Shown piece by piece: positions 2,709-20,600 of a DNA stretch of 37,745 bases. A model generated the notes under the pieces. The model worked only from the letters and a program-made list of their open reading frames with translations, did not search any database and was not told the origin of the DNA. How positions within the stretch are numbered: position 1 is the first letter of the stretch; each line of letters starts with the position of its first letter. Source of the stretch: a virus. The DNA lies in IMG/VR virus record IMGVR_UViG_3300005882_000006; one strand, written 5' to 3'. The position numbers and the translations under genes are program-made.

Positions 2709-2840
2709 TCAAATCGCAGTCGTCAACGTCTTGTATATTATCCGTTTACCTTCTAAAAGCTCATATTCACCCATACCAACATATTTAAAAACAAATTTCT
2801 GGCCAGAAAAAAACCTTGTTAAGCATTCCCCTATAATCAT
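2709..2840 (-). CDS. Small ORF, 43 aa (MIIGECLTRFFSGQKF...), not in track
   Basis: AGGAAAGGA SD lies 7-8 nt upstream of the ATG at 2840. The ORF starts 27 nt after the Gly-Tyr ORF stop and is the last ORF before the terminator. Confidence 0.3.
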   Translation of the reverse strand: MIIGECLTRFFSGQKFVFKYVGMGEYELLEGKRIIYKTLTTAI

Positions 2841-2867
2841 CTATCTATCCTTTCCTAATATACCGTA

Positions 2868-3143
2868 TTAGCCATAGCCAGAGCCATCGCCATAGCCATA
2901 GCCAGAGCCATAGCCATAGCCAAGGCCATAGCCAGAGCCATAGCCAAGGCCAGAGCCATCGCCATAGCCATCGCCATAGCCAGAGCCATAGCCAGAGCCA
3001 TAGCCAAGGCCAGAGCCATCGCCATAGCCAAGGCCAGAGCCATCGCCATAGCCATAGCCAGAGCCATAGCCATAGCCATCGCCATAGCCATCGCCATAGC
3101 CAAGGCCATTATCTAATCTGTGTTTCTGTTTAATTTTGAGCAT
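2868..3143 (-). CDS. Gly-X dipeptide-repeat protein (12-aa basic leader plus (Gly-X)39-Gly, X = Tyr/Ser/Asp/Leu)
   Basis: Track ORF with AAGGAG SD 9 nt upstream of the ATG at 3143. The start overlaps the end of the upstream gene by 14 nt. Confidence 0.55.
   Translation of the reverse strand: MLKIKQKHRLDNGLGYGDGYGDGYGYGSGYGYGDGSGLGYGDGSGLGYGSGYGSGYGDGYGDGSGLGYGSGYGLGYGYGSGYGYGDGSGYG
2871..3107. repeat. Hexanucleotide microsatellite, 39.5 contiguous units (minus-strand GGC-NNT)
   Basis: Direct reading of plus-strand units GCCATA, GCCAGA, GCCATC and GCCAAG with no spacers. Each encoded residue uses a single codon. Confidence 0.95.
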
Positions 3144-3516
3144 GGGCTTTAGCTCCTTGAATTAATTTAGCCGCTTTATCTGTACACTCAGTAATTGAGT
3201 AATCCTCCACAATAACCTTACGAACAACAACACCCGAAACTTTACTATCATCAGATAGGCCATGATTGCAAACGCCCTCATACCAGCTTTCTGTTTTTAC
3301 AGCAGGCCTGTGATACCACACGCGGCGGCACTCCTTCAAAATACAACCTGTATCGTCTGCTTCCTCCAAATACCCCGCGTTAATGCCCTCATTTCTTGAG
3401 CGAACAATGACATACTTTCCAATCATGTTTTTAAACAAACTTGATTGTGTTTGCTGCCCTCCAATTAGATTTTGCAGGTCTTTTAGTTGTCCAATAGTTA
3501 AATCGTTAATATTCAT
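3130..3516 (-). CDS. Hypothetical protein (128 aa)
   Basis: Track ORF with AAGGAG SD upstream of the ATG at 3516. I cannot name a family for it. Confidence 0.6.
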   Translation of the reverse strand: MNINDLTIGQLKDLQNLIGGQQTQSSLFKNMIGKYVIVRSRNEGINAGYLEEADDTGCILKECRRVWYHRPAVKTESWYEGVCNHGLSDDSKVSGVVVRKVIVEDYSITECTDKAAKLIQGAKAHAQN

Positions 3517-3738
3517 TTTAATCTCCTTTGTTATGAATTTTTATTTACTCAATATAAAAATGGGCGGGTGAAGCTATTTCAACGCTGTGCACTTCACTTA
3601 ACAGGTGTTATGCGCGCCCCTGCATGGTTACACCACAGTCCATGCCCTGCTTTCAACCCCGCCAGCATCTCACCTCTGTTAGGGGCTAGTGTTCTTCTTC
3701 ATTACTCACCTATAGGTATTTGATTTGTTGTTATGTAA

Positions 3739-3987
3739 TCAGCGGGGTAGTGCAAAATATGCTTTTACAATTAAATCCCGTACTCCGTTGTTTTTTAGCA
3801 TCTGATTTCCAAATTTGTTGTATTGTTCTTCATGGTATTTTTTTAATCTTTCAATCCCTTCCTCTGCGCTTACTTTAGACTGATAAATTTTTGGCTGCCA
3901 GAAACCGCCTTTATTGGTTAGAACCAATATTCCCCAAGTGCCCTTATAAGTTTCGATTTCGTCTAGTTCTGGTTTTTCTTTTAACAT
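3739..3987 (-). CDS. Hypothetical protein (82 aa; start moved to the internal ATG)
   Basis: The track ORF begins at a GTG at 4032. The ATG at 3987 (MLKEKPELDE...) overlaps the stop of the upstream 44-aa ORF (ATGTTAA), which suggests translational coupling. Confidence 0.5.
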   Translation of the reverse strand: MLKEKPELDEIETYKGTWGILVLTNKGGFWQPKIYQSKVSAEEGIERLKKYHEEQYNKFGNQMLKNNGVRDLIVKAYFALPR

Positions 3988-4115
3988 GCTACCACCATAT
4001 ATAACATTACTGCTAAGCACATAAGACCGCACATAGCCAGCCCTATATCTTCTCTAGCTTTACGCTTTTTGTTTAAATACTCAGTAGCTGCATTAATTCC
4101 TGATTGTCTGTTCAT
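3981..4115 (-). CDS. Small tail-anchored membrane protein, 44 aa, not in track
   Basis: The product is MNRQSGINAATEYLNKKRKAREDIGLAMCGLMCLAVMLYMVVAC. AAAGGGGA SD lies upstream, the C-terminus is hydrophobic, and the stop overlaps the next start. Confidence 0.4.
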   Translation of the reverse strand: MNRQSGINAATEYLNKKRKAREDIGLAMCGLMCLAVMLYMVVAC

Positions 4116-4188
4116 TTTATTCCCCTTTCGTTATTCTTAATCTACACCACTTTATTTACACTGTAAAGCACTTTTTTATTTTATTTTT

Positions 4189-4800
4189 TTATAGCTTCGC
4201 TCCATTGTAGTAATCATTCCAGCTTATCTTGCATTCACGGCTACCTTGCTCTTTGGGGTTTTTAAGGCTTGCTTTTAGTTTATCCTGAACGCTCTTTGGC
4301 ATCTTCTCAAAGTGCGAGTAATCAGGCTTATGGATTTTTTTCTTCTCTTTTTCTGGTTTCAAGTCCTCAATCGCTTGGTGTAGCCAATTTTCAAATTCCT
4401 CTTCTGGCATTTCTTCTGAAGATTGCCTTAATTGCTCACGTTTTTTCTTTTGCTTTTCAAGTGTTGCGTTTCTTGCTGCAATCAGCTCTGGACTATGTTC
4501 CGATTTATTCTTTGCATCCTTTTCGCATAGTTGCAGTATGTCATGCGGAGTTGGTAGCTCTCTCTTTTCCCGCATCCACTTCATGAATGCCTTGGTTATT
4601 GCATCCCCATCATAGGCATGTAAAACCATTGAGAACCCGCTAACCATGTTTTCTAGGCTGTCAGGTTGCTTACCGTAAGTCTGAAAGATGTCGTAGCTCT
4701 GACGTATCAGCAAAGCTATCGTCTTCAAATTGTGCTTCCTTGGCGATTGCCCTCGCGATTGCTGCGTCTGCACGTTCGGCGTGAGTGAGTTGTTGTCCAT
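4189..4800 (-). CDS. Replication-associated hypothetical protein (start at ATG 4800, or TTG 4728 behind AAGGAAG)
   Basis: Track ORF 4189..4929 trimmed. It overlaps the upstream replication gene out of frame by 131 nt (59 nt with the TTG start). The C-terminal half is a charged K/E-rich coiled coil. Confidence 0.5.
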   Translation of the reverse strand: MDNNSLTPNVQTQQSRGQSPRKHNLKTIALLIRQSYDIFQTYGKQPDSLENMVSGFSMVLHAYDGDAITKAFMKWMREKRELPTPHDILQLCEKDAKNKSEHSPELIAARNATLEKQKKKREQLRQSSEEMPEEEFENWLHQAIEDLKPEKEKKKIHKPDYSHFEKMPKSVQDKLKASLKNPKEQGSRECKISWNDYYNGAKL

Positions 4801-5440
4801 TGCTATTTCCTTTCTTTGGTGCGTTAGGCCATTCAAACGAGTTTCTAAATGCTGCCACATAATCCTTGTATGTCTTTCCGTTGGATTTACAATAATCCTT
4901 AAACTTTTCCAAAAGCCTATGCTCGTCAATCATTAGATATTTCCCAGAAACTCGCTTTTCTGTTAGCCAATCCTGTATATGTAAAACTGACAAATCTTCT
5001 ATACTATTACCTTTACTATTACCTTTACTATTACCTTTACTATTACTTGTCACCCTTGCTTGACCCTTGCTAGGGTCATCTAAGGGTCTTAAATATTCTT
5101 GTTTTTCAAAGTCTTGCGGTATATTGTATTTTTTCAGCTCATCAATAATAGATTTGTGTGCTCTATTATTGTTACGTAAACTTTTTTGTTGGAATTTTAC
5201 AAATGACGGGATAAAAATCGTATTGTCATCTATATAATGGAGTTTATTTGAAAATGCTTCCAAGTCGGATTTGTTTATTTTCACACCTATATGAAAGCTC
5301 ATCGCATCGAAATCTGGTTCTATAATGCCAGCAAATGAACACTCCGCCAACAGGTATTCCCACAAGCATTTATGTTTTGGCGATAGCTTCCTATACCATG
5401 GGTTTCTAAATTTGTCGCTGTCTGTAAATCTTTTTGGCAT
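4670..5440 (-). CDS. Phage replication initiator / replisome-organizer-like protein
   Basis: The N-terminus FRNPWYRKLSPKHKCLWEYLLAECSFAGII...IPSFVKFQQ matches the pattern of phage replisome-organizer N-domains. A (NSKG)n linker separates two domains. Confidence 0.5.
   Translation of the reverse strand: MPKRFTDSDKFRNPWYRKLSPKHKCLWEYLLAECSFAGIIEPDFDAMSFHIGVKINKSDLEAFSNKLHYIDDNTIFIPSFVKFQQKSLRNNNRAHKSIIDELKKYNIPQDFEKQEYLRPLDDPSKGQARVTSNSKGNSKGNSKGNSIEDLSVLHIQDWLTEKRVSGKYLMIDEHRLLEKFKDYCKSNGKTYKDYVAAFRNSFEWPNAPKKGNSNGQQLTHAERADAAIARAIAKEAQFEDDSFADTSELRHLSDLR
5002..5048. repeat. 12-bp direct repeat x3.8 (TACTATTACCTT) inside the replication gene; candidate iterons
   Basis: Direct reading. The repeat encodes NSKGNSKGNSKGNS, and AT-rich sequence lies at 5090..5240. 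Confidence 0.8.
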
Positions 5441-5531
5441 GTCTGCCCCTTTCTGTTTAAAGGGTTAAGGTTGACTGGCCTGTTGAAACAGCAACAGCTT
5501 GCGGGAGGGATCAGCTCACACCAGCCAATTC

Positions 5532-5559
5532 ATATTATACGTGATTAATTCATTGTCAA
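5532..5559 (-). promoter_or_regulatory. Sigma70-like promoter candidate upstream of the replication genes
   Basis: The minus strand has a perfect TTGACA (5554-5559), a 16-nt spacer and TAATAT (5532-5537). A perfect TATAAT also occurs, but only 14 nt from the -35. Confidence 0.5.
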
Positions 5560-5572
5560 CAGAAGATTACAG

Positions 5573-5992
5573 TTAGCTTCTAAGCTCTTCTATTTCAACA
5601 TCGCACCGCCCTCGTAAAAATTCCTTCTCAAAGTGGTGCTCTCTATCTATGCCCATAACCTCAAATGTAGGCCATTTCACAAACTTATAGTTATCGTCTT
5701 TTAAAAGGCCAATACTCACCAAGGAATCAGCCGTGAATTTATGAATGCCAAACCCTACATTGTCCTCATCGAAATCGCCGTTACGTTCCATATAATATTT
5801 TAAATGTAACCTGATAGGGTTTTGAAATTGGTTTTTATTATACAAGCCTAAAGACTTTATATAATCATAGAATATCATCTTAGCATTGTGCTTTTCTCGA
5901 TGATGCCTATTAGCAAATGTATTTGCGTTTAGAGGGTAAGACTTCTTTTTTTTCTTACCAAGAATTATGCGTGTAGGTACTATGAACTTCAT
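5573..5992 (-). CDS. rusA: RusA-like Holliday junction resolvase
   Basis: Size 139 aa. The acidic motifs GDFDEDNVGFGIHKFTADSL and LLKDDNY fit the RusA D-x-D-N / K-x-x-x-D / DD pattern. Confidence 0.5.
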   Translation of the reverse strand: MKFIVPTRIILGKKKKKSYPLNANTFANRHHREKHNAKMIFYDYIKSLGLYNKNQFQNPIRLHLKYYMERNGDFDEDNVGFGIHKFTADSLVSIGLLKDDNYKFVKWPTFEVMGIDREHHFEKEFLRGRCDVEIEELRS

Positions 5993-6116
5993 TTAATTCT
6001 CTTTAAAAAAACATTCACCCCTGAAAGCCCGTTGCTCACTTTGATATATTTTTAGACTTTTAAAAAATGTTTTAAAATATATGTGGATTCTTTCTTTTAC
6101 AACGCAGGGGTAAATC

Positions 6117-11836: not shown

Positions 11837-12233
11837 GCAATCAAGATTAAAAGCTATTGAGCTTATAATGAATTGCAAAATTCCTGCGACCATATCTATC
11901 ACGGATGGTCAATCTAGGAGTTCATTACAAAATGCCCAACAGTGGCGTTGGTGTCAGCTTATCGCAAAGCAAAAGGGCGATGAAACACCATGGGATATTC
12001 AGGCGTATAATAAGCTTCATATTGGAGTGCCCATCATGCGTGAGGTCGATTGGTTTCGTGAGAAGTATGATGTAATCATTAAGCCGCTTGAGTATGAAAA
12101 GAAACTAAATCTTATGAGTGGTGACATGTTTCCCGTAACAAGACTTATGAGTAAAGAACAAAAATCAAGATACCTAGACGAGGTTGCTCGTTACTGGTCA
12201 GGAAAAGGGTTTTATTTAGAGGGGAGAATATGA
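11820..12233 (+). CDS. NinB/Orf-like recombination mediator
   Basis: The segment RSSLQNAQQWRWCQLIA parallels the lambda NinB segment RSLDQNRKLWACLGDVS. Size and context fit. Confidence 0.4.
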   Translation: MIIKDEQSRLKAIELIMNCKIPATISITDGQSRSSLQNAQQWRWCQLIAKQKGDETPWDIQAYNKLHIGVPIMREVDWFREKYDVIIKPLEYEKKLNLMSGDMFPVTRLMSKEQKSRYLDEVARYWSGKGFYLEGRI

Positions 12234-12442
12234 ACAATTCCATTGAAGGACGACAAAAAATAAAAGAAGAAACGCTTGGGTATATTAAGCAGTATAAAAA
12301 AGACTATGGTTACTACCCTAGTTTTGCCCAAATAGGCAAGCACTTTAATATCAGCAGGGTTGCAGGGCGCAATAGGGTGCTGAGATTAAAAAATGAATTA
12401 AAAAACATTTATGCGTATAAAAGTACTTTACAAAGTAAATAA
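12230..12442 (+). CDS. Small winged-helix/LexA-N-like DNA-binding protein (70 aa)
   Basis: The segment GYYPSFAQIGKHFNISRVAGRNRVLRLK is HTH-like. ATGA overlap with the upstream gene. Confidence 0.4.
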   Translation: MNNSIEGRQKIKEETLGYIKQYKKDYGYYPSFAQIGKHFNISRVAGRNRVLRLKNELKNIYAYKSTLQSK

Positions 12443-12478
12443 ATTGATATAGGGTATAATTAATAAAGGGGATATAAA

Positions 12479-12643
12479 ATGATTGTTTGCAGTTTTGATG
12501 GTCTTGAGTTTTACAAAGGTTATCTTGGTGCAAATGATTTATCGCTCAAAGATATTAAATATCGAGTAGCTATATCCCTTGGTCTTAAACCGAATCAAAT
12601 AAGGGTACGCTATGTTAACATTACACACACTACCAAAGACTGA
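12479..12643 (+). CDS. Small ORF, 54 aa (MIVCSFDGLEFYKGYLGANDL...), not in track
   Basis: AAAGGGGA SD lies upstream and a perfect TATAAT hexamer sits at 12455-12460. Confidence 0.35.
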   Translation: MIVCSFDGLEFYKGYLGANDLSLKDIKYRVAISLGLKPNQIRVRYVNITHTTKD

Positions 12644-12710
12644 GTACGATTTAACCAAAGAGGAGCTAATCGAAGCTATTCGTGAATGCTCATTATCAAC
12701 TGTTCACTGA
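12612..12710 (+). CDS. Small ORF, 32 aa (MLTLHTLPKTEYDLTKEELIEAIRE...), not in track
   Basis: It overlaps the previous small ORF and ends 7 nt before the next ATG. Support is weak. Confidence 0.2.
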   Translation: MLTLHTLPKTEYDLTKEELIEAIRECSLSTVH

Positions 12711-12717
12711 GGTTATT

Positions 12718-12939
12718 ATGGATGTCAGAGAATGCCAGCGAAACAGTGCAACAGCCCTCAGAACAAGAGTTAAAGTTATGGCGCATCAGGTTGTGGCGAT
12801 TTGTCAGGATTTAGAAATTGAGGAAAGTGGCGCTAATATAGCACTTTTAAAAGAATGTATCTCAGAAATGCTCATTTTTGCTGCTGAATACAACGCATAC
12901 AGAAACAGTTCAAGGATGTTTAAAGATGAACGAACATAA
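12718..12939 (+). CDS. Hypothetical protein (73 aa; start moved from GTG 12682 to ATG 12718)
   Basis: GAGG SD lies upstream of the ATG at 12718. Confidence 0.45.
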   Translation: MDVRECQRNSATALRTRVKVMAHQVVAICQDLEIEESGANIALLKECISEMLIFAAEYNAYRNSSRMFKDERT

Positions 12940-13132
12940 CCAAGCACTAATCTTTGTAACAGCCCTACTTATATTCGGTATAGCCTTTCTGGTGATAGCC
13001 ATTAAGGAAAGCCAGCCAATAGCATTAGGCACAGAATGCCGTAGTGGGCTTAAGCAGGATACATTATACGCAGGACGAATTGATTGTGCTGCGGTTGGAT
13101 TAAGTAACATAGAGCCAGCAGGAGGTGAGTAG
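12926..13132 (+). CDS. Small single-pass membrane protein (68 aa)
   Basis: The product MNEHNQALIFVTALLIFGIAFLVIAIKESQ... has one N-terminal TM helix and two Cys in the tail. AAGGA SD; start moved to the internal ATG. Confidence 0.5.
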   Translation: MNEHNQALIFVTALLIFGIAFLVIAIKESQPIALGTECRSGLKQDTLYAGRIDCAAVGLSNIEPAGGE

Positions 13133-13134
13133 AT

Positions 13135-13293
13135 ATGGACTACAAAGTTTTAATACTGCTTTGCGTAATGATTATTAGCTATGCAGGATGTACTGCTTAC
13201 ATAGAAGGGGCAGATAGTTTGTCAAAAAATTTGAATTGCACATTAAATCTAAAAATAGACGATAAGGAGCAGCAAAATGACAATGCCAGATAA
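13135..13293 (+). CDS. Small lipoprotein, 52 aa, not in track
   Basis: The product MDYKVLILLCVMIISYAGC-TAYIEG... has a signal peptide with an A-G-C lipobox-like cleavage site. AGGAGG SD; the ORF begins 2 nt after the membrane-protein stop. Confidence 0.5.
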   Translation: MDYKVLILLCVMIISYAGCTAYIEGADSLSKNLNCTLNLKIDDKEQQNDNAR

Positions 13294-13708
13294 GATATAC
13301 GCAGGGACAACCCTTAATCAAAAAACTTGTGGCAGTTGGTTTGAAGAGCCATCTATGGGTTACAGAGAACCAGAAACACCCTACACCCGCACCGACCTAT
13401 ACGAAGCCAAGCAAGCCGAACGTGACTCTCTTAAATCTGAAAACACACGCCTTCGTGAGCGCTTAGAAATGGGCTACGCCTACACACTGGACGGTGAAAA
13501 GGTAGAGTGCGAAATAAGCGAAAGCACAGATGGGATTGCCTGCCGTGATGCCACTATAAAGCTTTTAGAGCGTGAGATTAAAAAGATTAAAGCACAAGCA
13601 GATGCGCTGTGTGATGCTTTAACACATATCTTGCTAGTTCATAGTGATACAGCCGAGGAGTTTGCGCAACAAGCAATAGACAACTACAAACATAAAGAGA
13701 AGGAGTGA
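13277..13708 (+). CDS. Hypothetical coiled-coil protein (143 aa)
   Basis: Track ORF. Confidence 0.5.
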   Translation: MTMPDKIYAGTTLNQKTCGSWFEEPSMGYREPETPYTRTDLYEAKQAERDSLKSENTRLRERLEMGYAYTLDGEKVECEISESTDGIACRDATIKLLEREIKKIKAQADALCDALTHILLVHSDTAEEFAQQAIDNYKHKEKE

Positions 13709-13712
13709 AACT

Positions 13713-13838
13713 ATGTTTACAGAAGAACAAATAGAAATTGCAAAATCATACGAGGAAAGAGCATTTGCAGCGCTCAATAATCCAGAAGAATTTGAGCGTA
13801 TTATGGCCGAATTTGAGGAAGTTAAGGCAAGCTGGTAA
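13713..13838 (+). CDS. Small ORF, 41 aa (MFTEEQIEIAKSYEERAF...), not in track
   Basis: AAGGAG SD lies upstream. Two GC-rich hairpins follow (13842-13857 and 13861-13900). Confidence 0.35.
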   Translation: MFTEEQIEIAKSYEERAFAALNNPEEFERIMAEFEEVKASW

Positions 13839-13898
13839 GCAATTCCCTAACGGGAATAGTGGGGCGGTGAGGAAACTCATAGAGTAAGTACGGCCGCC

Positions 13899-13959
13899 CC
13901 GCGATTGATGATATTAAAAGATGTCTTGATAAACTTATGGAGGAGCTAAATGAAAACTA
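13899..13959 (+). repeat. 61-bp perfect direct repeat, left copy (cassette boundary)
   Basis: Identical to 16988..17048. It contains a gene 3' end remnant, a GGAGGAG SD and ATGAAAACTA. Confidence 0.95.
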
Positions 13960-15038
13960 CAATTATTGATAAAAATTATAAAGGATTGAAGCAGGTCGAA
14001 AATGGAGATTATGTTCTCAATGGCGACCTGGTTATAGAGGGAAATCTTGAGGTAAAACTTGACGATAGGCTTGTTGTAAAAGGATTTAATACAGTTAATG
14101 GTTGGATGAAAGTTGATAAATCAATCATTGTCGAAAAGTATCAGAAAGTCGGTGAGTATCAGGAAATCGGCGGGTCTCAGGAAATCGGTGAGTATCAGGA
14201 AATCGGCGGGTCTCAGAAAATCGGCAGGTCTCAGAGAATCGGCGGGTTTCAGGAAATCAGTGAGTGTCAGAAAATCGGCTGGTCTCAGGAAATCGGTGAG
14301 TATCAGGAAATCGGTGGGCGTCAGAATATCGGTGGGCGTCAGAAAGTCGGTGAGTATCAGGAAATCTGTGGGCATCAGGAAATCGGCGGGTCTCAGGAAA
14401 TCGGTGAGTATCAGAGAATCGGCGGGTTTCAGGAAATCGGTGAGTGTCAGAAAATCGGTAGGTATCAGGAAATCGGTGGGTCTCAGAAAATCGGCAGGTC
14501 TCAGAGAATCGGCGGGTTTCAGGAAATCGGTGAGTGTCAGAAAATCGGCTGGTCTCAGAAAATCGGCGGGTCTCAGGAAATCGGTGAGTATCAGAGAATC
14601 GGCGGGTTTCAGGAAATCGGTGAGTGTCAGAATATCGGTGGTAACTCTGACGTAAAAGCAGGACGCTGCGTCATGTTGTCAATCACAATTAAAGGCACGA
14701 TGAAAACAGGACTGAGGATTTTTGCAGGGACATGTAATTGGAGAGACATTTCGGAACAAGAAAAAACAATCACCTGCGCCAAAATGGAAGGCGGTGAGAT
14801 TTGCTACGGTATCTTAAAAGAAAGCGGTAACACTGGCGCTGGCCTTAATATATTCGACTGGCTTAATGAACGTGGATACCTCATCACCAAAGAGAAGCTT
14901 GATAAGATTGAGGGGTTGAAGAAATCTTTCACCCCCATAGACAAACTAGAAAGCTATGACGAATACATGACAGAAAATGAAGTGAATGCTTACAATCTAG
15001 CGTTACATGATGCTGTAAAGATACTTAAGGGGGAGTGA
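13950..15038 (+). CDS. Hexad-repeat (G-x-x-Q-x-I x27) beta-solenoid-like protein with unique N- and C-terminal domains
   Basis: Track ORF with GGAGGAG SD. The frame runs through non-repetitive flanks. The N-terminal LNGDLVIEGNLEV...VVKGFNTVNGWMKV is already beta-helix-like. Confidence 0.7.
   Translation: MKTTIIDKNYKGLKQVENGDYVLNGDLVIEGNLEVKLDDRLVVKGFNTVNGWMKVDKSIIVEKYQKVGEYQEIGGSQEIGEYQEIGGSQKIGRSQRIGGFQEISECQKIGWSQEIGEYQEIGGRQNIGGRQKVGEYQEICGHQEIGGSQEIGEYQRIGGFQEIGECQKIGRYQEIGGSQKIGRSQRIGGFQEIGECQKIGWSQKIGGSQEIGEYQRIGGFQEIGECQNIGGNSDVKAGRCVMLSITIKGTMKTGLRIFAGTCNWRDISEQEKTITCAKMEGGEICYGILKESGNTGAGLNIFDWLNERGYLITKEKLDKIEGLKKSFTPIDKLESYDEYMTENEVNAYNLALHDAVKILKGE
14151..14636 (+). repeat. Tandem 18-bp repeat x27 with near-identical 72- and 90-bp higher-order blocks
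   Basis: Direct reading: 14205-14294 vs 14475-14564 differ at 3 of 90 positions, and 14385-14456 vs 14565-14636 differ at 1 of 72. Confidence 0.95.
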
Positions 15039-15247
15039 TGGAAACTGGAGAGCTATTAGCCTTATGTAGAGAATTAAAAGGTGTGTCACTTCGAGAAGTG
15101 GAAAATAAAACAGGAATTTCAAATGCTTACCTAAGTCAAATAGAGAGCGGTAAAATCAAAAACATATCATTTACAAACGCTGTGAAGTTGTGTCGTTTCT
15201 ACAACCTCACACTTGATAGATTAGCGGAGACAACCAATGAACGATGA
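15038..15247 (+). CDS. XRE-family HTH transcriptional regulator (69 aa)
   Basis: The segment SLREVENKTGISNAYLSQIESGK is a classic XRE HTH. The ATG shares 1 nt with the stop of the repeat protein (TGATG). Confidence 0.8.
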   Translation: METGELLALCRELKGVSLREVENKTGISNAYLSQIESGKIKNISFTNAVKLCRFYNLTLDRLAETTNER

Positions 15248-15356
15248 AACAAAACCAGCAATCGGAAGTGATTTAAAAATCTATCTAAAAGGTGAAAGCC
15301 CTTTTGTTACGGTAATCAGATACACAGATATCGGACTTAATTCTGCATTTTTATAA
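15237..15356 (+). CDS. Small ORF, 39 aa, not in track
   Basis: It overlaps the XRE 3' end, and its stop shares an A with the next ATG (TAATG). Confidence 0.3.
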   Translation: MNDETKPAIGSDLKIYLKGESPFVTVIRYTDIGLNSAFL

Positions 15357-15526
15357 TGATTTGCGCTGCGGTGGTTCTTTATCAGGCTTTCGTTAATCAC
15401 GATCATTTGTGCATTATTCTTATTTGCATCCACCTCGGTATAGCGTATGGCGACAGCGTTTATAAGAAGCGGCACGATAGCGTTGGATACGGATTTATTA
15501 AAGGATTTACAGGAGAGAAACCATGA
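15356..15526 (+). CDS. Small ORF, 56 aa (MICAAVVLYQAFVNHDHLCIILICIHLG...), not in track
   Basis: It is coupled on both sides (TAATG upstream, ATGA with the 15523 gene). The N-terminal half is hydrophobic. Confidence 0.35.
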   Translation: MICAAVVLYQAFVNHDHLCIILICIHLGIAYGDSVYKKRHDSVGYGFIKGFTGEKP

Positions 15527-15906
15527 CCGACACGATTGAGATGATTGAGGAAGCTTTAGCGGCGTATAAAGGATGGATATGCGATGGTGAATTATTGATG
15601 CCACGGAACTCTATTGACGCGCTGACCAAAGCAGAGACCAGATTGTGTAATAGCGGAAAAACAATCAAAGCCACCCTATCCGTCCTAAAGCGCATAGCAA
15701 GCGGGGATGATTGGTTTGATATTGAGAGTGCGCCAACAAAAAATGGGGGCAATGGAAAAATTATTTTGCGCTCTCCTAATTATCGAGAAGACCAGATTGT
15801 TTATATTGATAACTGGTGGAGGGGTGGACATTCTGCGGAAAGCAAGCCCTTTCAATGGAAACACATCGACCACGCCGAACACATTAAAATGCTCTTAGAG
15901 CAATAA
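15523..15906 (+). CDS. Hypothetical protein (127 aa)
   Basis: Track ORF with GGAGAG SD. Confidence 0.55.
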   Translation: MTDTIEMIEEALAAYKGWICDGELLMPRNSIDALTKAETRLCNSGKTIKATLSVLKRIASGDDWFDIESAPTKNGGNGKIILRSPNYREDQIVYIDNWWRGGHSAESKPFQWKHIDHAEHIKMLLEQ

Positions 15907-16001
15907 CTAAAAGGATCAAAAGATGAATAAAGACCAAGAGCAACAGATAGACGCGCTTATTTGCGACAATTCAAATTAAGGAAGCTAGAAAGGCATAGAA
16001 A

Positions 16002-16244
16002 ATGAGCATACGTGAAAAGATAATCGAAAATGTAGCAAAAACCATGCGTGAAGAAACATATACTTGTGACAATGACGAAAGAATAATAATTGAAACATTA
16101 AAGGAATCCCTAAATAACTGCATTATTATCGATAATGTGGATTTTCAATCAGCATTGCAAACAGCCGAAACTTTAGGATTGTCGAATATTGAAACAAAAG
16201 CGCTAGTCAGTGAGCTTATACAATCAGATATAGGGAGCAGATAA
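16002..16244 (+). CDS. Hypothetical protein (80 aa)
   Basis: Track ORF. Confidence 0.5.
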   Translation: MSIREKIIENVAKTMREETYTCDNDERIIIETLKESLNNCIIIDNVDFQSALQTAETLGLSNIETKALVSELIQSDIGSR

Positions 16245-16246
16245 AA

Positions 16247-16537
16247 ATGAGCGATAATAAAAAAACGTTAGAGGCTTGGGAACGTGTAGCAGCATACGCA
16301 ATAGACATGTGCAGCCTATCTGGAAATGCCAGTACAACCTACGCGATAAGGAAAGATATAGAAACAATCCTAAGCGCCCTCAAAGCCCTGCGAGACGAGA
16401 ACAAGCGGTTGCGGGATGCTTTGGAGTTTTATGCAGACCCTAATTCATATCGCAAGGACATGGATAGCGGACAAACGGATATTTATAACGACAGAGGCCA
16501 ACGCGCCCAGCAAGCCATAAACCCAAAAGGAGAGTGA
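16247..16537 (+). CDS. Hypothetical protein (96 aa)
   Basis: Track ORF. Confidence 0.5.
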   Translation: MSDNKKTLEAWERVAAYAIDMCSLSGNASTTYAIRKDIETILSALKALRDENKRLRDALEFYADPNSYRKDMDSGQTDIYNDRGQRAQQAINPKGE

Positions 16538-16894
16538 GTGAAGCGGGTATTTAGAATACGCAGAAAAGACACGGGGCAGTTTTTCGCAGGGCTTGCATAC
16601 CCTTGGATAGACAGCGGTCATCCAGTCTGGAATGATAAGGGCGCTTTCTATCGAGATATAAGTGTTGTTATTGCTTGGCTGCGTGTTCTGTCTTGCGACT
16701 GGTCATCAATAAAAGAGCCAGCAAACAAGATAACATGCGTCACTGCCAAGAAGCTTATAAAATACATAGATCACACCTTTGATGAAAAGATGCTTGTGCT
16801 GTATGAGGTTGTTGTGAATGACATAACTATAAACGGAGAAGAGGTTATAAAGGCTTGCGATTTTACAAAGGAAGCTACCCACGCAGGCGCCTAG
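16538..16894 (+). CDS. Hypothetical protein (118 aa, GTG start)
   Basis: Track ORF. AAAGGAGAG SD sits in the upstream gene's end, and the GTG directly follows the TGA. Confidence 0.5.
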   Translation: MKRVFRIRRKDTGQFFAGLAYPWIDSGHPVWNDKGAFYRDISVVIAWLRVLSCDWSSIKEPANKITCVTAKKLIKYIDHTFDEKMLVLYEVVVNDITINGEEVIKACDFTKEATHAGA

Positions 16895-16923
16895 AGCGTA
16901 TTGACGCTATAGACTGGGAGGGG

Positions 16924-17049
16924 ATGAAGAAACCAAACTACGGAAATATGGCACTTAAAAGCATTAACAAAACAAAGGGCTACAACGCCGCGATTGATGA
17001 TATTAAAAGATGTCTTGATAAACTTATGGAGGAGCTAAATGAAAACTAG
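16924..17049 (+). CDS. Small protein, 41 aa (start moved to ATG 16924); its 3' end forms part of the 61-bp repeat
   Basis: GGGAGGGG SD lies upstream of the ATG at 16924. The track version (16855) overlaps the previous gene by 40 nt. Confidence 0.4.
   Translation: MKKPNYGNMALKSINKTKGYNAAIDDIKRCLDKLMEELNEN
16988..17048 (+). repeat. 61-bp perfect direct repeat, right copy (cassette boundary)
   Basis: Identical to 13899..13959, at an offset of exactly 3089 bp. Confidence 0.95.
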
Positions 17050-17380
17050 AATACAAGAAGCGCTTGAGCAACTTCCGTTAATGCACCACATAAGCACAGG
17101 TGAACCGTTGTCTGACGAAAGCATAAAGCGAAATGAAGCCATAGACACAGCGATAGCAATCCTAGAACACCTCTTAACGCTAGAGCTAGACGAGGGTATG
17201 CCGAATGAAGTTTGGGCAAAATCAAAAGGATATGCCAATACAGGGAGCGCAGAAAAGCCAAATCGTTTTATGATTGGTGAGTGGTGGGCAGATGATGAAT
17301 ATGGAACTCGCTACACCCAACCCGCCGCGATACTTGCAGAGATAGAAAAGAAGATAGGGGAGATAAATGAAACCAACTAA
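17039..17380 (+). CDS. Hypothetical protein (113 aa); start codon lies inside the right 61-bp repeat
   Basis: Track ORF. Confidence 0.55.
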   Translation: MKTRIQEALEQLPLMHHISTGEPLSDESIKRNEAIDTAIAILEHLLTLELDEGMPNEVWAKSKGYANTGSAEKPNRFMIGEWWADDEYGTRYTQPAAILAEIEKKIGEINETN

Positions 17381-17650
17381 AGAAGAAATACAGGCAGCAC
17401 TGGATGCTTTGGATAGGATGAGAGAATGTAACCACTCGACAGAAAGTGAGTACTTGCGCGACATTGAAGCAATCAAGAAAGCCCTTGACGCTTTCTGGGA
17501 GAGAGAACTTGACGAGATAAAAAACTTGAGGATGCTTTAAAAGACTCCTATTTGAATGAACACACTTATGCCCCTGTTCATATCATCATGAGGGCAGCCA
17601 AAGAGTACCTAGAGCTTATTAAAAAGGATGCAAAAACATTAAAGACCTAA
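17367..17650 (+). CDS. Hypothetical protein, interrupted: the zero frame stops at 17540, and the -1 frame from A_AAA_AAC (17519..17525) continues to 17650
   Basis: The zero frame reads MKPTKEEIQAALDALDRM...ELDEIKNLRML*. The -1 frame reads ...EIKK-LEDALKDSYLNEHTYAPVHIIMRAAKEYLELIKKDAKTLKT*. It has no start codon of its own and opens only 5 codons before the heptamer. Confidence 0.45.
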
Positions 17651-17699
17651 AGAATGCGTTTCGTTCCAGTAGTCAAATATATCTGAAAGCTCAGTATCG

Positions 17700-20600
17700 C
17701 TAAAGACCAAAACCATAACGACCATTCATAGCATCAAACGCGCCCTCACGTTCCGCAGCACTTAGGCTATCAAGCGTGTGCAGATACCCGTAAAGCTTGC
17801 CTATACCGTTATCAACCTGAGAGCCGCCGACCTTAACTCGAACCTTGCTTGTGTAACCATCAGACGGGTCAAAATTAAGCGTGGCTGTATTGTGTCCGTT
17901 CACGTAAACATTGCAGCTTGATGATGATATGAAATCTAGTGTGATTATAAGCTTTTCACTTGCACCTATTCCTGTCGTGATTGTCTGATTTGACGCTGCT
18001 TCATTCTGTGAATACACAAGAGTGCCATTTGAACGAAGATACATTTGAGCGCTTGTTGTTACAGTTCCGACCGAGTTAGTAAACGTAATAAATGCACCGA
18101 ATGCTGGTAAAACGGACGGTGTTTCAATAGCAAACATGATTGTTAGGTTTCCAGTAGCGCCATAGTCCGTGTCGTAGTCAAGAATTGTGTCAGTATCAAG
18201 TACGAGGTGGTCAGTTGAGAATACTGGTTCTGTGCCTGATATATTAAACCCTGATACAGTACCGCTCACAGTGTCAATATCACTAACATTTGAGCCGCTT
18301 GAATATGTCTTAGAGCTGTCCGTTGCTTCTAAATAGGCTACCTGATTATCGAGTGATGCAATATAATCTGTGATACTAACACTATAGTCATGAACAAACA
18401 TCAACGGTAGCTCACGCGCACTGTTTGATTTGATACAGTTATTAACATTGTCAGAATAATAAGCGTTATTGCCGTAGATGTAGTACAGGTTAAGCTCGTC
18501 ACTTGCTTCAATCGCAGCGTCAAGAGTTAGGCGAACCGTGCTTGCATCTTGTCTGTCTTGTGAAGTGATTGTAACCTCTTCACCGTCTGCGTCAAGCAAC
18601 GCAAACCCTTCAATCCCACTTGTTGGGGTGAAGTCTGTTGAGCCATAATGAGTGATGCCAACATCAACATACGTATTACCAATAACACCCGCAGCAGATG
18701 AAATAACAGGCGGTTTAGCTGCATGTAGATCAATAATTCCGCGTTGCTCCATGTCAAACCAAAGCAAGCGATAGCCCATAGTCGTGTAATCTTCTGCATA
18801 ATAGTGGGCAGAACCTAAGTTGTTATCAAATCCCCATGTTGCAGGTGCGTTGAAGTCATAAGCCCAATCAAGCTCTTGGACTAGCTCAAGCTCTGCTTCA
18901 CGGAACGCTTGTAGAATAATGTCAGGGGTGTTTGATAAGCGCCCACAAGCAAGCTGACTGTACATGACCATGTTAGGGTAGCGTCTACGCAACTCAAGCC
19001 AGCACTGCTTTGTGCCGTACTTCCATAAATCCATTGGTACTGTTTCAGGCTTGGTTTCATCGAAAGGTAGATCAAACTGCCACTGATCCCATGCACATAC
19101 TTTAACATTGTCTTCATTAAAGCCGTTGCGCCTATGGTGGTCATTGATAGAAATATCCCAAACGTTACCAAAAGTGTCTTCGTCTTCGTCCCATAAATAC
19201 GTGTTTAAAGACGCTGCGTTAGGGTCAAGCTGTCTGTTACGCTTAAGCATCGCCGAGCCACCTTGTATGCGTGGGTCATAAAGAGACGTTAGCATAAAGT
19301 CAGATACATATTTTCGCGCTTCGTTGTAGAAAGCAACCTCGCCATCACCTCTAAACACAATGTTAGTGTTAGGGTAAAGCATAATTTTATTGATGTTTGA
19401 TTGTGGCCCTAATAGATAAACAGTCTTATTTGAACCAATTGATTTTTCAAGCCCTTGTTCATTTGTCAAGGTATCATTAAAAACTTTTAGTTCATGCAAA
19501 ACCATAGAAGTTCTTAGTGATGAATTGGTTGTGTCTCTAAGATAAAATGTATCAAGTCCTATTGGAGAAGCACTTATATCATTAGTGAATTGTAATTCAC
19601 CTTTATCATACACAAGCATTGTGTCCTCATCCCAAGTGATGAGGGTGCTGTCATAACGTGGGGTTTTTGAGCGTATTCCGTAATTGTAGGTGAAATCACT
19701 AGAACCGCCAGACACAAAAGAAACTTTGTCATCTCCTGTGTCAGTAACACGTTTTGCAATAGCATTATTTGCAGGATTGCTTGAATTTGCTAATGCCCAG
19801 CCGTCTTGTCCTGTGTCTCCACCCCACATGATAGAACGAACATAAAATGCCCCCACATCATCTAATTCCCCAAAGTTAGTTACTGAAACAATCTCATCAC
19901 CACGAGATGCAGACGCTCCTGCTGTATCAATGGGGAAAGTCAAGTGGGGTAAGTATTTAGAGCCTGTATAGCCGTCTTCTTCTTGCATATCAGCCATAGC
20001 AAAATGAATTGTCATACCATCAGGCACAACAAGACGCATTTTATCACTGCTAGAAGCGGGGGTAATGTCTAGTTTTGAAGCCCAAGCCCACTCACGGGCT
20101 AGTAGGTATTCTTCACCTTCTCCACCAATTGAGAGTGTTGCATAAAGCTCATCACTTCCTGACACAACCTTATAAGTAAGCTGTGTGTTATGTGCGTTCG
20201 TATTGCCTACTGCACCAGCCCATTCAATCGTAACGTCTGAACCGCTCGCTGCAACTTCCCATACTTGGTCATTATTTGTAAAGCTAGAATTAAACGGCGC
20301 TGTTGCGTCAGTTACTACGGTCACTGAACCACTACCAGTGTCGAAGTGATCTGTAACAGCATCGGCACTTGGACGAGCATACTCAATTTTATTTGTGCGG
20401 TCAACTTGACTAAGTAAACCATTCAATTCACCACCACCAAAAGTACGCTCATAAATAGGTTCACTTGCTGCTGATAAAGCCCACTCGCCATCACTGTCAA
20501 TATAAACCGCCTGACTTGTTCTGGTTGTTGAAACGCCGATTGTTGAAGCAACCTCTGTAAAATCATGCCCTATGCCGTAAATAGATATGCCGTCACTTGT

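Follow-up and report, generated by a model that had tools for sequence, protein, structure and literature searches.

Several described kinds of repeat protein wind into beta-helices or related solenoids. The hexapeptide transferase signature is [LIV]-[GAED]-X2-[STAV]-X; the coils of FapA (DUF342) proteins carry about one (E)AGG-x-I motif per ~18 residues, not three idealised hexads; bactofilins polymerise through uncapped helix ends; and the pentapeptide repeat, A(D/N)LXX, forms a four-sided helix. Here we describe a 362-residue protein, hereafter the hexad protein, that is built around G-x-x-Q-x-I hexads encoded by 18-bp tandem repeats and lies in the virus record IMGVR_UViG_3300005882_000006 of IMG/VR, a stretch of 37,745 nucleotides that was analysed whole and that we call the window. 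Like the hexapeptide-repeat proteins LpxA, LpxD, GlmU and gamma-carbonic anhydrase, it has a strict six-residue period, an aliphatic residue followed by Gly, and one predicted short strand per hexad; unlike them, it has no catalytic or trimer-forming context and gives no significant structural match. The explanation we favor, with moderate confidence, is a capped hexad solenoid of a phage family, its length set by repeat number and its role non-enzymatic. Hexad solenoids are already known; what would be new is one with a predicted glutamine core, in an unannotated phage family.

The array consists of 27 hexads in register, uninterrupted from residue 68 to residue 229, and is preceded by one degenerate hexad, EKYQKV. 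Gln occupies position 4 in all 27 hexads, Gly is found at position 1 in 25 (with one Ser and one Cys), and position 6 holds 26 Ile and a single Val. At the DNA level, Tandem Repeats Finder reports 28 copies of an 18-bp period at 14138-14641 with a score of 497, far beyond chance, and the scores for periods of 36 and 54 are 595 and 611. The array contains only 16 distinct 18-mers. One pair of higher-order blocks (14205-14294 and 14475-14564) differs by 3 mismatches in 90 nt and another (14385-14456 and 14565-14636) by 1 mismatch in 72 nt; near-identity over so many units points to very recent duplication. Every number that the original prediction, a reading made from the letters of the window, had given for the run of hexads was correct, and its mismatch counts for the blocks were obtained again on recomputation. 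Units differ from one another at the first two bases of the codons for hexad positions 2, 3 and 5, plus GGT/GGC alternation at the Gly codon. Among the ~15 mutational steps inferred between unit types only 1 is synonymous, against an expectation of ~18%, but this deficit is not significant (P ~0.2, binomial estimate), and we therefore make no claim of positive selection on the window array.

Comparison with other genomes places the hexad protein in a large family. It matches phrog_5353 in PHROGs, annotated as of unknown function, at E = 6.6e-18, and a word-indexed search returned 19 metagenomic homologues with the same layout. A profile built from the non-repetitive 65-residue segment after the array and searched against 1.84 billion representative proteins matched 409 clusters at E<=1e-3 and 160 at E<=1e-10 (clusters counted at 50% identity), the proteins among the matches listed being 44-315 residues long. 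Members share a plan: a beta-rich N-terminal cap (N-cap) of several sequence types, 3 to ~28 hexads, a conserved C-terminal cap (C-cap) of ~65 residues, and a short variable tail. The C-cap consensus reads F-[AI]-G-x-C-x-W-[RK]-[DE] ... EKTITCGK ... G-x-[VI]-x-YGILKE-x-G, commonly ending YGILKETG, and the corresponding residues 230-296 of the window protein read GGNSDV...RIFAGTCNWRD...EKTITCAK...GGEICYGILKESG; in an alignment of these residues with 14 homologues one F and three G are invariant (F, G, G, G). In the window protein the C-cap follows the array directly and homotypic hexads fill the interval between N-cap and C-cap, the two features by which we recognize the family. The C-terminal part of ~130 residues, earlier taken to be a unique domain, is thus something else: residues 230-296 are the most conserved module of the family, and the last ~50 residues are an apparent fusion.

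The statement that the protein could not be assigned to a known family stands as far as curated families are concerned, but does not hold more broadly, given PHROG 5353 and the large metagenomic family that contain it. Pfam gave no family for the hexad protein at E<=1, the cap-module profile matched no PDB sequence at E<=10, and megablast of window positions 12000-17000 against GenBank phages returned no match. No description of the family was found in the literature on hexapeptide repeats, glutamine ladders, DUF342/FapA and phage beta-solenoids. We recovered 37 family loci from IMG/VR viral contigs and 5 from metagenome-assembled genomes; the two of the latter that were examined (L011 and L012) are prophages with ERF, gp3, replication protein O and terminase. 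Nearly all members are carried by phages or prophages, and the family amounts to widespread phage accessory genes, in more than 400 clusters, that have no Pfam model. One Q-type member, P0013 (315 residues; L007/L008 6001-6948), carries an N-terminal zinc-ribbon-like extension with CxxC pairs and lies on contigs of 45-63 kb among genes for L20, IF3, SmpB and adenylosuccinate synthetase; it may be a non-phage copy, because these surroundings are cellular housekeeping genes.

Two types of hexad occur in the family. The commoner is G-[EGWS]-[GSY]-I-[EK]-A, or G-x-x-I-x-A for short, and the minority type, which includes the window, is G-[GEWR]-[YSF]-Q-[EK]-[VI]. Residue preferences at positions 2, 3 and 5 are alike in both, and only positions 4 and 6 differ; the window has E/G/R/W at position 2, Y/S/F/C at position 3 and E/K/R at position 5. 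Of 921 hexads scored, 186 have Gln at position 4; in 185 of these position 6 is I/V, and in none is it Ala. Where position 4 is I/L/V, position 6 is mostly A/S/T/G. The two types are never mixed in one array, except in a hexad abutting a cap. The caps do not follow this division but are shuffled relative to core type: residues 1-45 of the window protein are almost the same as in L033, whose repeats are of the I/A type. N-cap identity to the orthologue L014 is 62%, and C-cap identity to L014 and L054 is 71-80%.

The original prediction had suggested a beta-helix or solenoid, possibly with a Gln ladder, and had proposed structure modeling of the protein whole and in part. AlphaFold2 was run on the full protein and on residues 152-296, and the latter model is a beta-solenoid. 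For the full length (19 sequences) the mean predicted local distance difference test score (pLDDT) is 71.5, with one strand of 3-4 residues per hexad, scores of 87-89 for the cap and a low score for the helical tail. For residues 152-296 (alignment of 47 sequences) the pLDDT is 96.2 and the predicted template modeling score (pTM) 0.88, again with one strand per hexad. The modeled strands run x3-Q-x5-I (for example Y-Q-R-I) and the turns are G-x, which makes a 2-residue turn and a 4-residue strand, and the hexads are predicted to form a single-chain parallel beta-solenoid. In such a model Gln at position 4 and Ile at position 6 would face the core and the stacked Gln side chains would form a buried amide ladder; we place Gln inside because it lies on the same strand face as Ile, which must be buried. 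Homotypic arrays fit with such stacking, and the shared face, the strict Gln-I/V pairing and the absence of mixing together make the ladder plausible. Positions 2, 3 and 5 would then cover the surface of the rod, and, from the analogy of other hexad solenoids, we assume three hexads (18 residues) per coil.

Array length differs widely between relatives. The close orthologues, all in frame, have 3 hexads (L014, 170 residues), 21 hexads (L054, 254 residues) and, in the window, 27, which bears out the earlier proposal of recent in-frame expansion and a length-variable rod. Exact-word scans of IMG/VR and JGI metagenomes for the window flanks matched no same-species allele, so polymorphism was judged from orthologues at 60-80% identity. 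The window array is at the top of the family range but not unique, since L015, L017 and L047 reach 25-28 hexads, and long arrays (17-28 units) recur in many independent lineages. The codons for Gln and Ile/Val are uniform inside each array and differ between phages: CAG/ATC in the window, CAA/ATA in L054, CAA/ATT in L047 and CAG/GTT in L037. Because arrays keep the residues with differing codons, selection acts on the protein and not on a DNA motif, and because codons are uniform within phages and different between them, each lineage must have expanded or homogenised its own array. Taken with the homologues, these sequence comparisons show the hexad gene to be real and its protein to be under selection. 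Its start is preceded by a Shine-Dalgarno sequence graded strong, GGAGGAG (13939-13945), 4 nt 5´ of the ATG.

Two observations on reading frames belong here. Two open reading frames (ORFs) that overlie the array, at 14113-14655 (+; SVSIRKSAGLRKS...) and 14121-14375 (-; DFLILTDFL...), are other-frame by-products of the repeat and not genes. In L053 (MW202524, Manatee Spring podovirus; 2766-3168) an extra G in the last hexad (GGG -> GGGG) splits the family gene and shifts the C-cap into the +1 frame, through either a sequencing error or pseudogene formation. The original prediction would have abandoned a functional protein if changes in repeat number broke the frame in natural variants; the MW202524 frameshift is a +1 G in a G-run and involves no change in repeat number.

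The 3´ end of the window gene departs from the family pattern. Family tails usually end in ...GYKIIKE*, but the window protein continues as ...RGYLITKE-KLDKIE..., and a tail of this kind is found in neither L014 nor L054. A related phage, L051 (IMGVR_UViG_3300026518_000030), is 79-81% identical to the window in nucleotide sequence in both flanks and has 756 bp (5243-5999) with a single ORF, orf126 (126 residues), where the window has ~4 kb (13711-17700). Window positions 14878-14912, which encode LITKEKLD, align with the 3´ end of orf126 (94% identity over 35 nt), and positions 15011-15040 also match the 3´ end of orf126 and encode KILKGE followed by a stop. Because of these matching patches, and because the family tail motif runs on past its usual end, the last ~50 residues are probably an in-frame fusion to the 3´ end of a resident, unrelated gene. 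To judge from the alignment with L051, the interval 13711-17700 is a hypervariable accessory slot beside the tail gene.

A 65-nt direct repeat marks this region (Table 1). Copy 1 supplies the ribosome binding site, ATG and first 14 nt of the hexad gene and, read in another frame, preserves a remnant of the 3´ end of a gene resembling ORF 16855-17049. Together the two copies bracket a 3089-bp module in which the hexad gene comes first, followed by the XRE gene and five small ORFs, and the repeat has the look of a recombination scar, at which the module could also be deleted. Just 5´ of copy 1, at 13862-13898, lies a GC-rich inverted repeat (GGGGCGG ... CCGCCCC, loop ~23 nt); no T-run follows it and it was not called by a terminator scan. 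Neither Pfam nor PADLOC yielded anything of use for the tail or for any ORF of the 3.1-kb module. The 1-nt coupling to an XRE regulator, from which a regulated function had been surmised, is physically real, the stop TGA of the hexad gene (15036-15038) and the ATG of the XRE gene (15038) overlapping as TGATG. However, none of the 28 other family loci examined has an XRE-like ORF within 3 kb, so the adjacency is no evidence of regulatory pairing.

Table 1. Features of the hexad gene and its module in the window.
Feature	Position	Strand	Basis or remark
65-nt direct repeat, copy 1	13899..13963	+	64/65 identity with 16988-17052
Hexad protein coding sequence, 362 residues	13950..15038	+	ORF call and homologues
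N-terminal cap region, residues 1-67, beta-rich	13950..14150	+	Homologue comparison, AlphaFold2
Array of 27 tandem 18-bp units, G-x-x-Q-x-[IV] hexads, residues 68-229	14151..14636	+	Predicted beta-solenoid rod
C-terminal cap module, residues 230-296	14637..14837	+	Alignment, profile matches, pLDDT 87-98
Tail, residues 297-362, helical, low-confidence model; probable gene fusion	14838..15035	+	L051 orf126 matches
XRE/Cro-type helix-turn-helix (HTH) gene (HTH_3), 70 residues, ATG at 15038	15035..15247	+	Pfam
65-nt direct repeat, copy 2	16988..17052	+	Junction: end of ORF 16855-17049, start of ORF 17039-17380

The window carries genes for a portal, a major head protein, a virion protein, a tail protein, a helicase, a methyltransferase, an exonuclease, SSB, an HNH endonuclease and NinB, and no tRNA genes. 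The hexad gene lies downstream of those for the exonuclease, SSB, HNH and NinB in a + strand operon, late in the early/recombination operon, and its region is convergent with the gene for a 1404-residue tail protein. Other family members adjoin genes for an SNF2 helicase, DNA polymerase III alpha/ThyX, ERF or replication protein O.

An early-region setting recurs in a hypothetical protein, ST1_0045 of Streptococcus phage phiST1 (L052, KC413988, 2906-3868), which has relatives of its own. Like the hexad protein it is an early-region protein of near-perfect tandem hexads with recent higher-order duplications, and tblastn of window residues 19-232 aligns with it at 30% identity. Unlike the hexad protein it has a canonical-like V-x-G-D-A-x hexad and different termini, and the FAG-C-W / TITCGK / YGILKE cap is absent. 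It represents a different hexad family, in which G-D-A-x-V-x hexads form perfect 24-residue super-repeats after MAMPKY repeats. Since ST1_0045 sits directly upstream of genes for an ERF recombinase and SSB, the comparison hints at expanded hexad solenoids as a recurrent feature of early regions in phages.

We tentatively propose that the hexad protein serves as a non-catalytic binding or scaffold rod made inside the cell early in infection, a possibility to which we give rather less than even weight. The proposal of a non-enzymatic rod draws on the protein having neither a catalytic domain nor a signal peptide and on the conserved caps at both ends. The number of 18-bp units sets rod length and changes by in-frame duplication or deletion of several units, independently in each phage lineage. 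The window copy is an expanded 27-unit allele, its 3´ end probably joined to part of a resident gene, and sits in a mosaic accessory region at the end of the early/recombination operon. A rigid, soluble rod would present its variable surface and/or its C-terminal tail to a partner inside the infected cell. A bolder version, which we think unlikely, would make this a structurally new class of beta-solenoid whose buried Gln-ladder core is interchangeable with an I/A core, used by phages as a length-tunable spacer, ruler or binding rod, with the 18-bp array diversifying both length and surface in an arms race.

Several readings compete with a capped, length-variable rod of non-enzymatic function. 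A neutral runaway, in which slippage or unequal recombination enlarged the array of a dispensable gene and the extra coils were structurally harmless, is a doubtful but respectable possibility: the closest orthologue has only 3 hexads, arrays were homogenised within each phage and expanded independently, the near-identical blocks are very recent, and the gene lies in a mosaic region absent from L051. Against this, G, Q and I/V are strict in every unit while the surface varies, which argues for constraint on the protein unit by unit, and arrays of 17-28 units have arisen in many independent lineages. The 28 tandem 18-bp units of very high identity could also be read as an element acting at the DNA level, for instance iterons of a replication origin or sites for a binding protein, with an incidental ORF; but we find this barely credible, as orthologous arrays keep G/Q/[IV] with different codons, hundreds of homologues have conserved protein domains on either side of the array, and the gene has a strong ribosome binding site and an intact frame. 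The iteron reading is essentially refuted by the codon evidence. Quite unlikely, in our estimate, is a decoy for anti-defence or host takeover whose surface mimics a nucleic acid or a host protein and whose repeat turnover reflects an arms race. The protein is a non-enzymatic capped solenoid from an early/accessory phage region, its surface positions vary, its repeats turn over rapidly, it is mildly acidic (isoelectric point, pI, 5.2; net charge of the array -8), and a pentapeptide-repeat gene lies directly upstream of the L001 homologue. Pentapeptide-repeat proteins (Qnr, MfpA; PF00805, PF01469) are functional analogs only, being capped, non-catalytic single-chain solenoids of a very short repeat with two inward positions and a variable repeat number; they differ in that the window period is 6 and not 5, with no sequence relationship, no Pfam Pentapeptide match and no strongly acidic DNA-like surface. 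The charge is too weak and too balanced for a DNA mimic, with E and K about equal at position 5, and the median pI of the family is 5.25 with some members neutral, so DNA mimicry was rejected on charge. No PADLOC or anti-defence family matched, and genes for defence or counter-defence are not regular neighbors of the family. The only PADLOC match was one of 12.9 bits to the tail (E = 0.007), and the XRE neighbor matches generic HTH models; nothing, then, supports the defence or anti-defence effector that had been suggested earlier.

The remaining alternatives take their cue from known folds. An ordinary left-handed beta-helix hexapeptide acyltransferase might be read from weak matches of the repeat region to LpxA, LpxD and GlmU (PDB 4eqy, 3.3e-8; NCBIfam LpxA, 29 bits) and from the [IV]-G dipeptide, which fits positions i and i+1 of the signature. 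Yet the best NCBIfam score, 29 bits, is ~8-fold below the curated cut-off of 226, Pfam Hexapep (PF00132) and acyltransferase flanking domains are lacking, and Gln stands at i+4, which requires a small residue. Foldseek template modeling scores (TM-scores) to LpxA, LpxD, GlmU, gamma-carbonic anhydrase and NeuO are 0.14-0.25 with E > 1, Foldseek being weak on repeat folds. We regard this identity as highly improbable, effectively refuted by the sub-cut-off scores, the missing Hexapep match and the Gln at i+4. That Gln is foreign to the canonical signature had been remarked on at the outset and applies to all 27 hexads; in the I/A sister type, large and small positions are swapped relative to the signature. 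A bactofilin- or FapA-like polymer, forming end-to-end filaments in the infected cell, seems decidedly unlikely. I/A-type members share the (E)AGG-x-I motif with FapA/DUF342 (PF03961), and 5 of the 19 homologues come near its threshold, aligned to the start of the solenoid (best 1.1e-6; P0015, 28.9 bits against a gathering score of 31); one of the 19 matches bactofilin PF04519 (E = 0.012), and bactofilins resemble the hexad protein in being small, non-enzymatic, G- and I/V-rich and beta-helical. Bactofilin 2n3d is among the Foldseek matches, at a TM-score of 0.27 normalised to the query and 0.36 normalised to the target. However, the window protein itself matches neither family, the Foldseek E for 2n3d is 2.0 and thus not significant, FapA proteins are larger, cellular and endowed with other domains, and the hexad family, unlike bactofilins, has conserved N- and C-caps, which in solenoids would normally be expected to block end-to-end association. 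The near-matches to LpxA/LpxD/GlmU and FapA are a kinship of periodicity, not family membership; with no assignment from Pfam or NCBIfam, the protein is neither an ordinary hexapeptide acyltransferase nor a bactofilin, the two identities that would have removed its novelty. Beta-helices are also common in tail fibres and spikes, and a place in the virion, as a fibre, whisker or decoration protein of length tuned by repeat number, could be imagined from top BFVD matches that include baseplate and Peptidase_S74 proteins and from the convergent tail protein gene that the region abuts. This we hold to be very unlikely: the gene is on the opposite strand from the structural operon, inside the recombination/early operon, other members adjoin replication genes, the protein is small and modeled as a single chain without a trimerisation or chaperone domain, and BFVD TM-scores of 0.2-0.4 denote generic solenoid similarity. 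The top BFVD match is an uncharacterised Caudovirales protein, the others being generic solenoids.

Some results also weigh against the capped, length-tuned rod that we favor. We infer from the models its handedness, how many residues make up a coil and that Gln points inward, and the 18-residue periodicity that DSSP finds in the model is only suggestive. Foldseek gave no significant match in the PDB for either the full-length or the pLDDT-96 model (best E 0.42 and 0.76). The binding or scaffold role is deduced from features that the protein lacks, and clustering of neighboring ORFs within ±3 kb at 29 loci yielded no partner common to more than 4 of them. Finally, the closest orthologue, L014, has only 3 hexads, and since it presumably works, the long array may have no adaptive meaning.

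Other low-complexity proteins and neighbors were noted in passing. On the - strand at 2868-3143 of the window, a 91-residue ORF made almost wholly of G-Y/D/S/L dipeptides (GYGDGYGDGYGYGSGYG...) overlies 19.5 tandem copies of a 12-bp unit (2869-3102). It is thus another low-complexity protein of this phage that has expanded recently, and among families it matches only Pfam TrAA12-like, weakly and below threshold. A perfect 12-bp repeat of 3.8 copies at 5002-5046 encodes (SNSKGN)x3 within an ORF of 256 residues at 4670-5440 (-). Near family members elsewhere, L054 has, at 3883-4395, ORFs of 74, 114 and 170 residues downstream of the 21-hexad orthologue, the longest with the Fic motif HPFMDGNGRSGR; L001 has a Pentapeptide_2 (PF01469) protein directly upstream (5287-5988); and L012 has a 425-residue DUF6745 protein directly upstream (3128-4405), overlapped at 3393-3782 by an ORF in another frame with G-[IL]-K-S tetrapeptide repeats.

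If the structural prediction is true, the hexad protein would be a natural, highly regular, self-capped beta-solenoid with a polar core of stacked Gln, apparently soluble, in which the Gln stacking resembles the ladders discussed for amyloids and polyQ. Nature would already have sampled lengths from 3 to ~28 repeats, together with a sister that has a hydrophobic I/A core. Such a family would offer a clean model for beta-helix folding, capping and the energetics of Gln ladders, and possibly a scaffold for design. For the phages themselves, the family shows rapid concerted evolution of repeats, and, although the protein may just as well be a dispensable passenger, finding its partner could bring to light a new tactic of host takeover or counter-defence.

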